IMG/VR virus record: IMGVR_UViG_2939521961_000008
DNA from: a virus
Lineage: Duplodnaviria > Heunggongvirae > Uroviricota > Caudoviricetes
Strand: one strand, 5' to 3'
DNA: 48,101 bases
Part shown: piece after piece, positions 1,553 to 22,669 of the stretch
Layout of the letters: every line of letters starts with the position of its first letter
Numbering within the stretch: the first letter of the stretch is position 1
Position numbers and translations under genes: made by a program
Notes under the pieces: model-generated
The model's input: the letters and a program-made list of their open reading frames with translations, nothing else
Database searches by the model: none
What the model was told of the DNA's origin: nothing

Positions 1553-1753
1553 TCACGAGGACTGAAGTTTCTCGCAATTAAAATTTATCAGTTTTACTTT
1601 CTGCTCTCTGGAAACGCCTGCTTCTTTTTTACCTGAGAGCATTTTTTCGCATTCTGATTTCGTTAGTTTAGATTTTGAATATCTTGTCCAGTTAGTAGGA
1701 GTGCCACCTTCCTTTTCAATAGTGGCGGTAATTTTATACATGAACACCTCCAT
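1553..1753 (-). CDS. ydaC: small Rac-type protein YdaC-like (start chosen at internal Met MEVFMYK)
   Basis: ORF track 1553..1813; synteny between xis and ralR; overlaps ralR 3' end by about 20 nt. Confidence 0.55.
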   Translation of the reverse strand: MEVFMYKITATIEKEGGTPTNWTRYSKSKLTKSECEKMLSGKKEAGVSREQKVKLINFNCEKLQSS

Positions 1754-8818: not shown

Positions 8819-9709
8819 TCAGGCTGCCAGATCATTATTTCCGATGGAAGCATAATAAGCTTTTTCTGCTTCTGCCGGAGGAATATGGCCCAGCCTTTCC
8901 AGCAATCGTCGATTGTTATACCAGTCCACCCACGTTAGTGTGGCCAGTTCCACTTCTGTCCGGTTTTTCCAGCTATTACGGTGTATTACCTCCGCTTTGT
9001 AAAGACCATTGATGCTCTCAGCCATCGCGTTGTCATACGAGTCGCCAGTACTCCCTGTTGATGCCAGTAATCCGGCTTCCTTAAGCCGCTGCGTGTAGGC
9101 CAGCGATACATACTGAGAACCTTTATCACTGTGATGGATTGTGCCGGACGGCCGACGGGCCCACAACGCCTGCTCCAGTGCATCCAGCACGAATGTTGTT
9201 TCCATGGATGATGAGACCTGCCATCCCACGATGTATCCGGCGAACACATCAATGATGAACGCCACATAAACGAAGCCCTGCCATGTGCTTACCCAGGTAA
9301 AATCAGCCACCCACAACTGGTCTGGACGTTCTGCCACGAACTGACGGTTTACGCGGTCGCATGCGGCAACGGCTTTCCGGCTGACGGTAGTGCGGACCTT
9401 TTTACCCCGGAGAACACCGGCAAGTCCCATAACTGCCATGAGACGTGCCACAGTGCATCTGGCCACTCTGATACCTTCCCGTAACAACTGACGCCAGACT
9501 TTACGCACACCGTATACCTGGTGATTTTCATCGTATACGCGCTGTATCTCTTTCTTCAGCCAGTCATCGTGCTGCGCACGGGCACTGCGTTTATCCGGAT
9601 GATGTCGCTGTTGCTGACAATGGTAATACGTTGACGGGGCAATATGCAGTTCGCTGCATACCGGTCCGACCCCGTACTGCTCACGCAGCTTATCCAGCAG
9701 TGGCATCAT
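8819..9709 (-). CDS. IS3-family transposase OrfB (DDE integrase domain), 296 aa
   Basis: DDE-type catalytic core (…WVADFTW…, …HSDKGSQY…, …DNAMAES…); overlaps orfA end. Confidence 0.9.
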
Positions 9710-10032
9710 TTTTTCCAGAGGCGGTCGAACTCCGCCTTCGCAAAATAAGCGGAAGCCTGGCGAAGGATATCGTTACTGCGGCGCAGTTCACGATTTTCAC
9801 GTTCCAGCTCTTTCAGACGCTGACGTTCAGCACTGGTGAGCCCACCATCACCGCCCCCGGTATCCCGCTCATGCTGGCGAACCCAGACACGCAGAGTCTC
9901 CGGCGTACAGCCAATCTTTGGGGCAATGGAACAAATTGCCGCCCACTGTGAGTCATATTCATCCTGACTTTCCAGAACCATACGAATCGCCCGCTGACGG
10001 ACTTCGGGGGAAAAACGAGTATTTTTAGTCAT
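9706..10032 (-). CDS. IS3-family transposase OrfA (HTH), 108 aa
   Basis: [22 protein letters not shown]... with leucine-zipper-like C-terminus; ends in GGAAAAAATGA where orfB begins (frameshift window). Confidence 0.9.
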
Positions 10033-15173: not shown

Positions 15174-15639
15174 ACTGGCCTGAAGCATTTGCAATTACAG
15201 GCGTTGCTATGGCTATCGCTTTTTTAGTATATGTTATTTGTCGGTGAGGGTAAAAACGTTCGCCGGGATTAACACCAAAGGAGGGAATATGTCGGATGAT
15301 ATATCACTGGCAATGGAAGGTGCGCTGGCTGTTGTTGCTGTTGTGGGCGTTTACTGCCTGGTTGTGTTTTTGATGGATCGACTAGGGAACTGAATTCATT
15401 ACGATATGGGAATTCCCATATCGGGTAAAAACGGTTTGCGGGAAAAGGAGAGTTAAGTAGAATTGCTGCGGGTGCTTGAGGCTATCTGTCTCAGGCATGA
15501 ACACCAAAAGGCAGATAGAGAAAAGCCCCAGTTAACATTACGCGTCCTGCAAGACGCTTAACATTAATCTGAGGCCCAATCTATGTCTCACAAATGTAGG
15601 TTAGCCTCTTACGTGCCGAAAGGCAAGGAGAAGCAGGCT

Positions 15640-15795
15640 ATGAAGCAGCAAAAGGCGATGTTAATCGCCCTGATCGTCATCTGTTTAACCGTCATAGTGA
15701 CGGCACTGGTAACGAGGAAAGACCTCTGCGAGGTACGAATCCGAACCGGCCAGACGGAGGTCGCTGTCTTCACAGCTTACGAACCTGAGGAGTAA
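15640..15795 (+). CDS. hokD: Hok/Gef-family type I toxin (HokD/RelF-like), 51 aa; overlapping mok-like frame begins at 15583
   Basis: MKQQKAMLIALIVICLTVIVTALVTRKDLCEVRIRTGQTEVAVFTAYEPEE: single TM helix plus conserved Hok periplasmic tail; longer overlapping ORF in the same frame. Confidence 0.8.
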   Translation: MKQQKAMLIALIVICLTVIVTALVTRKDLCEVRIRTGQTEVAVFTAYEPEE

Positions 15796-19261: not shown

Positions 19262-19428
19262 TTTTTTTGTTTACTGTTTATTAAAAATACTACTGCATGG
19301 TGAATCCCCCTGTGCGGAGGGGCAATCAGCAACCAGGTATATGTGATAATCGCGGATTCAGGTGCTGATACTGAATTCACCGGGAGGCACCCGGCACCAT
19401 GCAAGAAAAAGAATGTGCATGCAAACAT

Positions 19429-19452
19429 GCCCCTCTCCGGAGGGGCTTTTTT
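19429..19452 (+). terminator. rho-independent terminator-like hairpin
   Basis: GCCCCTC-TCCG-GAGGGGC followed by TTTTTT. Confidence 0.5.
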
Positions 19453-19667
19453 ATGGGTAAAAAATGCCCGAATGGGTTCGGGCAATAGCATGAGATACTG
19501 ATATTGTTGTGTTGTTATCGTGTGGATTTTAACCAGGGTTTATCAGGCTGCGCAACTGCGTGGCCTTTTTTCATTTCTTGGGCTGTAGTCCCCGTGTGTC
19601 ATTCAGGCTTCCGGACTACAGCCCACTCCATATCTGATTTAATACACTATCCCGGCCGGGAGGAATA

Positions 19668-21518
19668 ATGACATTTAAACATTATGATGTTGTCAGGGCG
19701 GCGTCGCCGTCAGACCTTGCGGAAAAGCTGACACACAAACTGAAAGAGGGCTGGCAGCCGTTTGGGAGTCCGGTGGCCATAACCCCTTATACCCTGATGC
19801 AGGCGATTACAGCAGAAGGTGATGTGGTGGTCAGTGGTGCAACTGAGCCGGAGTGGTACTACGTCATCGTACTGGCCGGGCAGTCCAATGCCATGGCTTA
19901 CGGTGAAGGGCTTCCGCTGCCGGATTCATACGATGCTCCGGATCCGCGCATTAAACAGCTGGCGCGCCGCAGTACAGTGACGCCGGGTGGGGCTGCCTGC
20001 AGATATAACGATATTATTCCGGCCGACCACTGCCTGCATGATGTGCAGGATATGAGTACGCTGAATCATCCGAAGGCAGACCTGAGCAAAGGGCAGTACG
20101 GCTGTGTCGGCCAGGGGTTACATATTGCCAAAAAACTGCTCCCGTATATCCCGAATAACGCGGGGATCCTGCTGGTACCATGCTGTCGTGGTGGTTCGGC
20201 ATTCACCCAGGGCGCGGAGGGGACATTCAGTGCGGACACGGGGGCCAGCCAGGATTCGGCACGCTGGGGTGTGGGTAAACCGTTATATCAGGACCTGATT
20301 GCGCGCACTAAAGCTGCATTACAGAAGAACCCGAAAAATGTGTTGCTGGCGGTGTGCTGGATGCAGGGAGAGTTTGACATGAGCGCCGCCACCCACGCAC
20401 AGCAACCTGCGCTGTTTACAGCCATGCTGACACAGTTTCGTGCTGACCTCTCCGTGTTTAACGCGCAGTGCCATGGTGGCAGTGCTGCAGATGTGCCGTG
20501 GATTTGTGGTGACACGACGTATTACTGGAAAAATACATACGCTACCCAGTACGACACCGTGTACGGCGGGTATAAAAACAGGGAGAGTGAGGGCGTTTAT
20601 TTTGTGCCCTTCATGACAGACGGTAACGGTGTCAATACCGCCACTAACGCGCCGGCAGAAGATCCGGATATTCCGGCATCAGGATATTACGGTGCGGCAT
20701 CGAGAACGAATGGAAACCAGGTATCATCAAACCGCCCGACACATTTCAGTTCATGGGCGCGCAGGAGCATTATTCCGGATCGTCTGGCAACCGCTATTCT
20801 GAACGCAGCCGGGCGCACCTCCGCCTTCATCAGTGGTAAGGCACCGGAAATCAAACCCTCGCCCGGCGGCAACACGCCATCGGGTCCGTCTGCAGATACG
20901 TCCGTTCGCACAATCTCCCTGCTGCCGGCAGCCGGAGAGGCTGCTGCGCAGGGCTGGAGCATTAAGGATGGCGGAATTCAGTTGTCAGATGGTGTATTTA
21001 AGATCACCAAGCAGAGCAATAAAACCTGGTCCCTGACGCATCCGGTGGATGACGCAATTACCCTGCTGACACAGGGCGGCAGACTGACCTGTAAGTTCCG
21101 CCTGTCAGGCGCACTGACCAACAATCAGTTCGGGCTGGGGATTTATCTGTATACGGATGCTCCCGTTCCTGATGGTGTGGCGATGACGGGTACCGGTAAT
21201 CCGTTCCTGATGTCGTACTTCACTCAGACCACTGACGGCAGAGTGAATCTGATGCATCACAGGAAAGCCGGAAACACGAAGCTGGGGGAGTTCGGCGATT
21301 ACGGTAACGACTGGCAGACGCTGGAGCTGGTGTTCACCGCCGGCAGTGCCACGGTTACTCCGAAACTGAATGGAGTGGCTGGCCCGGCATTCCAGGTTAT
21401 AAAAGACAGTCTGACACTGGGACTGAATGCGCTGACGCTGACGGATGTTACAAAAAATGCAGCGTATGGCGTTGAGATAGAAAGTCTGATGCTGGAGATA
21501 AATGCACCGGCAGCATAA
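19668..21518 (+). CDS. nanS: prophage sialate O-acetylesterase (NanS-p / YjhS-like), 616 aa
   Basis: RBS GGGAGG; N-terminal small domain followed by an SGNH-hydrolase-type GQSNA motif (VLAGQSNAMAYGEG); size and position between Q and lysis genes as in Stx-type phages. Confidence 0.75.
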   Translation: MTFKHYDVVRAASPSDLAEKLTHKLKEGWQPFGSPVAITPYTLMQAITAEGDVVVSGATEPEWYYVIVLAGQSNAMAYGEGLPLPDSYDAPDPRIKQLARRSTVTPGGAACRYNDIIPADHCLHDVQDMSTLNHPKADLSKGQYGCVGQGLHIAKKLLPYIPNNAGILLVPCCRGGSAFTQGAEGTFSADTGASQDSARWGVGKPLYQDLIARTKAALQKNPKNVLLAVCWMQGEFDMSAATHAQQPALFTAMLTQFRADLSVFNAQCHGGSAADVPWICGDTTYYWKNTYATQYDTVYGGYKNRESEGVYFVPFMTDGNGVNTATNAPAEDPDIPASGYYGAASRTNGNQVSSNRPTHFSSWARRSIIPDRLATAILNAAGRTSAFISGKAPEIKPSPGGNTPSGPSADTSVRTISLLPAAGEAAAQGWSIKDGGIQLSDGVFKITKQSNKTWSLTHPVDDAITLLTQGGRLTCKFRLSGALTNNQFGLGIYLYTDAPVPDGVAMTGTGNPFLMSYFTQTTDGRVNLMHHRKAGNTKLGEFGDYGNDWQTLELVFTAGSATVTPKLNGVAGPAFQVIKDSLTLGLNALTLTDVTKNAAYGVEIESLMLEINAPAA

Positions 21519-21810
21519 TAAAAAAAGCCAGCGACTGACCTGAAAAAGAAGACGCTGGCTAAAAGGCCTTATATGTTTGTAGAGACTTATTTTTCACAGA
21601 CAGCAATGATGCCTGTCAATATATTATCAATATGCGGATTGTTTCAGTTACAGATGCCTTATTAAGGAAAAAAACAGCCAGCACTGACTTTCGGTGGAGA
21701 GGTGCTGGCTCAAAAGGATAGATGTACTTCACATGTTGCTTCTATATGGCAGTACATTTTCTGACAGACAGTGACGGATGTTGTCAAGATATTGTGTCAT
21801 TTATAACCTG
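21519..21810. repeat. two imperfect direct repeats of about 145 bp, each starting with an A-run plus a GCCAGC...GCTGGC hairpin
   Basis: Copy 1 around 21519-21667, copy 2 around 21668-21810; shared blocks AAAAAAA-GCCAGC-ACTGAC, GCTGGCT-AAAAGG, TTTTC-ACAGACAG, TGTCAA-ATATT. Confidence 0.6.
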
Positions 21811-21965
21811 AATCAGGGGAGGCCGGAATGTTATCTGGCATTTTTAGCAGAGCCTGAATGCCATAATCACGGCTCCCGGCGTTGGCCGTCAGTGGGTGAC
21901 ACTGGCGGCTTTTTTGTTTTTCTTTACTTTCATTTTCTGTCGGCGGTGACGGAGACATACATCAG

Positions 21966-22172
21966 ATGGAAAAAATCACAACAGGTGTGTCATACACCAC
22001 GTCAGCGGTGGGGACGGGATACTGGTTACTGCAGCTGCTGGACAAAGTCTCTCCGTCCCAGTGGGTGGCAATAGGTGTGCTGGGAAGTCTGCTGTTTGGC
22101 CTGCTGACGTATCTGACAAATCTTTATTTCAAGATTAAAGAAGATAAGCGTAAGGCTGCGAGAGGTGAATAA
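21966..22172 (+). CDS. S: class II holin, phage-21 S-type pinholin, 68 aa
   Basis: [68 protein letters not shown] closely resembles S21. Confidence 0.85.
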
Positions 22173-22669
22173 TGTCGCCGTCATTACGCAAGGCTGTTGC
22201 AGCTGCTATTGGTGGTGGGGCTGTTGCCATAGCGTCTGTGCTCATCACTGGTCCAGGTGGTAACGATGGTCTGGAAGGTGTCAGCTACATACCATACAAA
22301 GATATCGTTGGCGTATGGACTGTATGTCACGGACACACCGGAAAAGACATCATGCCCGGTAAAACGTATACCGAAGCAGAATGCAAAGCCCTCCTGAATA
22401 AAGACCTTGCCACGGTCGCCAGACAAATTAACCCGTACATCAACGTCGATATACCGGAAACAACGCGCGGCGCTCTTTACTCGTTCGTTTACAACGTGGG
22501 CGCTGGCAATTTCAGAACATCGACGCTTCTTCGCAAAATAAACCAGGGCGATATCAAAGGCGCATGTGATCAGCTACGGCGCTGGACATACGCTGGCGGT
22601 AAGCAATGGAAAGGGCTGATGACTCGCCGCGAGATTGAGCGTGAAGTCTGTTTGTGGGGGCAACAATGA
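22172..22669 (+). CDS. R: SAR endolysin (lysozyme with N-terminal signal-anchor-release segment)
   Basis: ATGA overlap with holin; hydrophobic Gly/Ala-rich N-terminus [20 protein letters not shown] followed by a lysozyme-like domain. Confidence 0.8.

Follow-up and report, generated by a model that had tools for sequence, protein, structure and literature searches.

Between the sialate O-acetylesterase gene nanS-p and the holin gene S of phage 434 lie two diverged direct repeats, and the question raised by this locus is what they encode and on which strand they act. The window, that is the whole stretch of 48,101 nt of DNA that was analysed, shares 100% identity with phage 434 (OL657226). A sequence-only reading of it had proposed that the hairpins of the two repeats could be terminators of antisense transcription into the late operon, or RNA-level regulators of holin timing. 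From the evidence given below it is very probable that repeat 2 is the sRNA gene pasA and that both hairpins are terminators of minus-strand sRNAs. The feature has been described before under the names PasA and EcOnc51/52: reports of PasA, PasC and EcOnc51/52 date from 2014 and 2021, and an analysis of their distribution, synteny and structural covariation from 2026. What is new is limited to the PasC-like copy in tandem and to the finding that the classical phage 434 has the locus. The flanking genes are:

19668..21518, plus strand: nanS-p (SASA-family sialate O-acetylesterase), left flank
21966..22172, plus strand: class II (pin)holin gene S, right flank

Repeat architecture of the nanS-p/S spacer

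The spacer between the two genes is 447 bp in length and holds both repeats. Each copy has an A7 run (21520-21526 in repeat 1 and 21668-21674 in repeat 2) followed by a hairpin, with the arms AGCCAGCG (21526-21533) and CGCTGGCT (21553-21560) in repeat 1 and AGCCAGCAC (21676-21684) and GTGCTGGCT (21702-21710) in repeat 2, and both the sequence and its predicted folding confirm that the stems differ between the copies and are complementary in each, as first noted. The existence of paired direct repeats, of about 150 bp, was likewise borne out. Global alignment of 21519-21668 with 21669-21818 gave 98 identities in 129 aligned columns with a further 42 gapped columns, and its score of 22 exceeded those of all 1000 dinucleotide shuffles (-15.6 +/- 5.2; z 7.3); the local alignment score of the pair had a z of 8.6 against dinucleotide shuffles. 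Stringent local alignment recovers the first 20 nt only, and softer scoring shows the full-length repeat. On the minus strand both copies also possess the motif AATATnTTGACA-N10-CTGTCTGT (21625->21596 and 21793->21764), for which a pattern search found only these two sites in the 48-kb window with 0 expected, and a profile search of the window with the repeat unit returned both copies and no others. The hairpin arms are offset by 150 nt (repeat search; D8, D11, I9) and the motif by 168 nt, this non-uniform register being due to the lack of approximately 18 nt of body in repeat 1.

The plus-strand folds of the two hairpins have energies of -15.5 and -20.8 kcal/mol (z -4.7 and -4.8). They fold on both strands, with a U run after the stem on the minus strand only, and both repeats thus have the form of an intrinsic terminator (a G+C-rich stem followed by at least five U) on the minus strand and lack it on the plus strand. 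The GenBank annotation of OL657226 places minus-strand terminators at both repeat hairpins and a plus-strand terminator at a third hairpin closer to S; the phage 434 genome announcement mentions neither sRNAs nor these terminators.

A search of the whole window against Rfam at the gathering threshold gave no match in the repeat region, and a search of 21400-22050 against Rfam 15, with AgvB, AsxR, STnc100 and Esr41 among the families covered, at E <= 10 gave chance-level matches only (E >= 0.13, far under gathering scores). Evidently, the Pas sRNAs are absent from Rfam 15. Two short minus-strand open reading frames, of 38 aa (21616-21732) and 53 aa (21797-21958), occur in the spacer; the spacer RNAs are explained as non-coding. 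Elsewhere in the window, gathering-level matches were found to RalA (1557-1735, plus strand), the antitoxin sRNA of RalR, to sok (15470-15645, plus strand), the antitoxin of the hok/sok type I system, and to the ALIL pseudoknot (9635-9751, minus strand), which is a frameshift element of IS3-family transposases and therefore indicates an insertion sequence in the window.

Identity of repeat 2

PasA was described in prophage PP2 of EPEC E2348/69 as a northern-validated sRNA whose stability is Hfq-dependent and which takes part in 41 RIL-seq interactions (Pearl Mizrahi et al., Sci Adv 2021, PMC8550237). Its major form of 85 nt runs on the minus strand of NC_011601 from 743499 to 743415 and its minor form of 236 nt from 743499 to 743264, with an orientation relative to its neighbors of '> < >' and with EcOnc51/EcOnc52 as EHEC homologs (Table S6, PMC8550237). 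The nanS-p/holin spacer of NC_011601 is also 447 bp and shows 0 mismatches over the 447 nt to that of the window; PasA is therefore encoded by 21752->21668 (minus strand). The two published 3' ends (743415 and 743264) correspond to 21668 and 21517 of the window, in the U tracts of repeat 2 and repeat 1 respectively, and the northern probe of the EPEC study, GCCAGCACTGACTTTCGGTGGAGAG (PMC8550237), has an exact match at 21677-21701. The features of this copy are:

21668..21752, minus strand: pasA sRNA (repeat 2), 85 nt, 85/85 identical to PasA of E2348/69
21676-21710, minus strand: pasA terminator hairpin, its U7 tail being the complement of 21668-21674
21486..21496, plus strand: CTGATGCTGGA, a published RIL-seq/MEME target site of PasA in E2348C_0688 (PMC8550237, supplementary target table), at the 3' end of nanS-p

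The minus-strand fold of repeat 2 gives the PasA terminator stem and U7, and comparison with the text of fig. S5 places the PasA seed GCCAGCACCU in the 5' arm of that stem. The position of the gene, between nanS-p and the class II holin gene S and antisense to both, is the reported PasA synteny, pasA and pasC being sited between sialic acid esterase and holin genes (Zhu et al., 2026). Phages YYZ-2008 and 2B8, given as a PasA and a PasC phage respectively by the same authors, share 99.4% identity with the repeat region in the case of YYZ-2008 and 92% over part of its length in the case of 2B8. The Hfq-CRAC peak named EcOnc51, in prophage Sp12 of O157 Sakai, lies over the 3' portion of a PasA-like unit. 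The identity, strand, RNA ends and Hfq dependence of pasA are established by sequence identity in conjunction with the published data; for phage 434 itself they would follow from the identical EPEC sequence.

With the target site listed above, PasA may pair with the mRNA of its own neighbor nanS-p, 22-32 nt before the stop codon. The RIL-seq table also holds a plus-strand fragment, pasA.E2348C_0689.IGR (E2348/69 743494-743512, equal to 21747-21765 of the window), in chimeras with PasB, and thus some Hfq-bound plus-strand RNA crosses the pasA 5' region in uninduced lysogens.

Promoter-like motifs

A pattern search, supported for pasA by an alignment of 45 variants, located a promoter-like motif on the minus strand of each unit:

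21759..21793, minus strand: pasA promoter-like motif, AATATC-TTGACA, with the hexamer at 21787->21782
21591..21625, minus strand: repeat-1 promoter-like motif, AATATA-TTGACA, with the hexamer at 21619->21614 and TG in the spacer

Both units have TTGACA, a 17-nt spacer ending in CTGTCTG and a weak -10 element (TCAGAA in pasA and TGAAAA in repeat 1). An alternative 18-nt spacer would give TGn with CAGAAA or GAAAAA, and in either register both -10 elements are poor matches. With 21752 as its reported 5' end, PasA begins 6-7 nt downstream of the -10 hexamer, and by the same geometry a repeat-1 transcript is predicted to start near 21584 and to be about 67 nt in length. Promoter use at both motifs is putative. 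According to Zhu et al. (2026) the PasA 5' end would instead be a processing product of a longer precursor, and the end may arise in either way.

Repeat 1, PasC and EcOnc52

In repeat 1 the following features were assigned:

21517..21584, minus strand: repeat-1 RNA, putative PasC-derived EcOnc52-type paralog of a predicted ~67 nt, its 5' end being predicted only
21526-21560, minus strand: repeat-1 terminator hairpin, with U7 as the complement of 21520-21526, directly adjoining the nanS-p stop codon

Repeat 1 is identical to PasC at 49 of 56 aligned positions, all in the 3' two-thirds with approximately 20 nt missing at the 5' end, and to PasA at 48 of 62. Similarity over the full length of PasC (78-79 nt) was sought in repeat 1 and found in the 3' two-thirds only, and the window has no match to the PasC probe CGCTGGCTAAAACGGGTAGATGTAC. 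The copy does possess the PasC-type terminator stem GCCAGCG/CGCTGGC with its U run adjoining the nanS-p stop codon, and a stretch specific to it, CUCUACAAACAUAUAAGGCC, would be usable as a probe target.

Whether this copy is a gene in its own right is about evenly balanced. A second reading, that repeat 1 is a decaying duplicate which serves only as a back-up terminator and stops PasA read-through before it becomes antisense to nanS-p, is a serious contender and falls a little short of that. The authors of the EPEC study treat the stretch as the 3' part of the 236-nt minor PasA isoform and merged it into PasA as pasA.E2348C_0688.IGR (PMC8550237), and the body of repeat 1 is shorter by ~18-20 nt around the very position matching the PasA 5' end. 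RIL-seq chimeras with escD at 743267-743294 on the minus strand correspond to 21520-21547 of the window, the repeat-1 3' end. Chimeric fragments are approximately 40-fold fewer on repeat 1 than on PasA, at 119 vs. 4983 (PMC8550237), and this signal could stem entirely from the 236-nt read-through. Repeat 1 was also passed over as a Pas homolog by Zhu et al. (2026), who state that pasA copies are never tandem, the closest pair being 22 kb apart; their BLAST-based survey evidently missed it as a family member.

Against its being a terminator alone, the -35 hexamer and CTGTCTGTGA (TG motif) are unchanged in 91/91 repeat-1 copies examined, the few substitutions sitting in the spacer, the flanks or the RNA body, although this carries little weight because there is little divergence and the motif itself served in part to retrieve the loci. 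A further argument comes from the EcOnc52 Hfq-CRAC peak of Sakai Sp4, which sits on a repeat-1-type unit directly 3' of the nanS-p stop codon and which has an area under the curve of 1.03 million, compared to 1.09 million for EcOnc51. In Sp4 (L211, position 1131) only 24 nt separate the start of IS629 from the repeat-1 -35 hexamer downstream of it and there is no adjoining pasA; as the unit is cut off from any pasA by this element, transcription from its own repeat-1 promoter is suggested, with the proviso that the Sp12 repeat-1 copy is identical to that of Sp4 and EcOnc52 reads may be multi-mapped. Finally, a repeat-1-only copy of ~91% identity on plasmid pRM10386-2 (L002; NZ_CP028124.1, 12658-12828) has kept its promoter-like motif intact and its stem by way of a G-U wobble (GCCAGTG/CGCTGGC). 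Similar repeat-1-only copies occur on EHEC plasmids of ~83-98 kb (H82-H88), and the plasmid copies lie among IS elements, accompanied by 86 nt left over from the 3' end of nanS-p.

That repeat 1 is transcribed on its own is accordingly given an even chance and remains putative. The same chance is given to repeat 1 being an unrecognized third member of the family that has both a promoter and a 5' targeting region of its own; the locus would then be a true tandem sRNA pair, and as its own gene, repeat 1 would contradict the published statement that the copies are never tandem.

Homologs and stem covariation

Two retrievals of homologous loci were made. The first, anchored on the holin protein, gave 80 loci, and three types of spacer were distinguished: those with repeat 1, repeat 2 and tail (phage 434, E2348/69 PP2, Stx1 phages and Sakai Sp12), those with a single PasC-type or GTAC-stem unit and tail, and those with no unit at all. 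A scan of genome contigs with the nanS-p C-terminus gave 3 loci only and little added diversity. The second used the promoter-like motif as its anchor, which made it independent of the stem sequence, and gave 232 unit instances; hairpin and T run were kept in 227 of these, with the units trimmed by a hairpin-aware pattern, and 3 exceptions were IS-interrupted. Paired units were spaced at 167-169 nt in 85 cases. Among 5426 complete E. coli genomes, 671 contained a place covering at least 80% of the query, i.e., both units.

Insertion elements have hit the units repeatedly (L163, L189, L190 and Sakai Sp4). In L189 and L190 the IS629/IS3-family ends (TGAACCGCCCC...) lie within the terminator stem or RNA body, and L163 has a different insertion in the 3' arm.

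Covariation was scored on a ten-pair stem in 20 distinct hairpin variants (alignment A2). The stem cells were paired in 92.5% of cases vs. 21-53% in slid registers. The outer six pairs are essentially invariant and the two innermost pairs are held in some variants only. At pair 15-36, 12 variants have G-C and 8 have A-U; at pair 14-37, 17 have C-G, 2 have U-A and 1 has U-G. Clean compensatory changes are thus present at two stem pairs, and as the sequences are closely related they probably represent two or three independent events. Compensatory changes in a joint PasA/PasC consensus fold have already been reported (Zhu et al., 2026). The pattern is that expected of a maintained terminator stem, and the earlier suggestion that the stems are under selection for structure held up in this check of homologs.

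The covariation also bears on strand. A role in cis on the plus-strand late mRNA, where the hairpins would be stabilizers of the nanS-p 3'-UTR or processing sites involved in holin timing, was considered quite unlikely. Such a role would agree with the location of the hairpins inside the late transcript between nanS-p and S, with their good plus-strand folds (z about -4.7) and with the perfect complementarity of PasA and the repeat-1 RNA to that transcript. However, there is no plus-strand U run after either repeat hairpin, and the flanking conserved motif reads as a promoter on the minus strand only. The U-G wobbles at pairs 14-37 and 16-35 become C-A/A-C mismatches on the plus strand, and the minus-strand RNA is therefore favored as the folded species. 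Many S genes of the same family have unit-free spacers as well, and so S expression does not require them.

The suggestion of RNA-level regulation of holin timing found no backing, there being no link to it in the evidence or the papers, and the putative PasA promoter points away from S. A related idea, that on induction PasA and the repeat-1 RNA would act as cis-antisense RNAs and have the late transcript cleaved just ahead of the lysis cassette, thereby tuning the holin trigger, is considered unlikely, as is its converse, in which a flood of late mRNA would sponge PasA and free its host targets at lysis.

The proposal of terminators of antisense transcription stood in part. The hairpins are minus-strand intrinsic terminators, with published 3' ends on both U runs, but their role as free-standing insulators of the late operon against antisense transcription from or beyond the lysis genes is very unlikely. 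A canonical stem with U7 on the minus strand at each site, and the minus-strand terminators annotated at both in OL657226, would fit such insulators; however, each hairpin lies ~70-85 nt downstream of its own promoter-like motif, at which the transcripts would start, and ends an Hfq-bound sRNA, the RNAs accumulating as discrete species with dozens of trans partners. A search upstream, within 21800-22400, found no minus-strand promoter-like site. Lastly, the notion that repeat similarity and stem complementarity arose by chance in an AT-rich spacer, for which the low overall identity and the 20 nt recovered by stringent alignment might speak, can be set aside as practically nil in view of z values of 7-9, the absence of any equal among 1000 shuffles, a motif found twice with 0 expected, and the two-unit arrangement in 671/5426 genomes.

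Proposed mechanism

In the preferred reading, one prophage sRNA gene would be present here in two tandem copies that have diverged, both encoded on the minus strand, opposite to the late operon. The S-side copy, pasA, would be transcribed from its promoter-like element with a consensus -35 into an 85-nt RNA ending at a Rho-independent terminator, whose stem and U7 tail would form the usual Hfq-binding 3' module and whose 5' stem arm, GCCAGCACCU, would be the reported seed that pairs with target mRNAs in trans. The nanS-p-side copy would be a PasC-derived paralog with the same promoter-like motif and a body short by ~18-20 nt. PasA read-through would stop at its terminator to give the 236-nt form, and an EcOnc52-type, Hfq-bound RNA of ~67 nt is probably also made from this copy alone. 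The covariation of the stems would then reflect selection to keep the terminator/Hfq module in diverged paralogs. Any biological role of PasA and the repeat-1 RNA is putative.

The hairpin upstream of S

A further hairpin and T run upstream of S, also mentioned in the sequence-only reading, proved to be real and to lie on the plus strand:

21884..21921, plus strand: S-proximal terminator-like hairpin, GGCCGTCAGTG-GGTGA-CACTGGCGGC, then TTTTTTGTTTTT

Its stem covers 21884-21910 and its T run, which begins 56 nt before the S start codon, extends to ~21921; the fold has an energy of -22.8 kcal/mol (z -3.3), and the G+C-rich stem and U run of an intrinsic terminator are present on the plus strand. 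Among loci L003-L088 an equivalent hairpin was found 47-57 nt upstream of S in otherwise dissimilar spacer types, including loci without nanS-p, indicating that the element goes with S and not with the repeats. In an alignment of 25 variants (A3), compensatory double changes occurred in 5 of 10 pairs; some variants (e.g., L017, L053 and L071) keep the hairpin without a clean U run. In its simplest reading, which has about even odds, it would be an intrinsic terminator that Q-modified polymerase reads through and that keeps the lysis genes off unless transcribed from pR'. For H-19B and Stx phages, a literature search gave no relevant description of such an element upstream of S. Whatever precedes it, S in this holin family has a covarying terminator-like hairpin ~50-55 nt upstream.

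A weak plus-strand terminator-like site (GCCGGAATGTTATCTGGC, then ATTTTTAGCA) is also present at 21822-21839, on the S side of the pasA promoter and ahead of the S-proximal hairpin. Its conservation goes along with that of the tail, and it may be due to chance.

Comparison with known systems

The pasA gene of phage 434 has the same 85 nt, 447-bp spacer, flanks, orientation, terminator and seed as PasA of E2348/69 PP2 (EcOnc51 in EHEC). No sequence difference separates it from PasA of EPEC, and what differs is the host element, which is here a classical laboratory phage. Repeat 1 shares with PasC of E2348/69 PP5 the stem GCCAGCG/CGCTGGC, the stop-codon U run TTTTTTTATTATGCTGC and the promoter-like motif, and it differs in its U-rich loop (19 nt vs. 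8) and in the length of its stem (7-8 bp vs. 10); unlike PasC, it is unnamed as an sRNA and is putative. EcOnc52 of Sakai Sp4 is of the same sequence type as repeat 1. The diverged PasC-like tandem copy, missed by BLAST surveys, would explain the 236-nt minor form of PasA and identify EcOnc52.

The moron-site sRNAs STnc100/PasD and AgvB/AsxR (Tree et al., 2014) are likewise short Hfq-binding sRNAs antisense to the late operon; they are found upstream, not downstream, of nanS-p and have no sequence similarity to the repeats. This pair is present in the stx-less phage 434 as convergent STnc100 (19269-19458, plus strand, 147.8 bits) and AgvB (19459-19520, minus strand, 96.5 bits), directly upstream of nanS-p. 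The third hairpin was considered as the 3' end of the ~222-nt EcOnc04, listed with 'Ecs2262' as a homolog, and this was rejected, as EcOnc04 lies just upstream of the nanS-p start, in the STnc100/PasD position. With an exact copy of an EPEC pathogenicity-associated sRNA in addition to AgvB and STnc100, phage 434 offers a convenient K-12-compatible system for their study.

Adjacent, co-oriented paralogous sRNA genes with their own promoter and terminator are likewise found in OmrA/OmrB of E. coli and PrrF1/PrrF2 of Pseudomonas, in comparison to which the copies described here are far more diverged and the second copy's own transcription is putative. In the latter system PrrH is a longer RNA spanning prrF1-prrF2 that results from read-through of the first terminator, and it parallels the 236-nt read-through form of PasA. 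The Pas sRNAs had been explicitly contrasted with the tandem pairs OmrA/OmrB and PrrF1/PrrF2 (Zhu et al., 2026).
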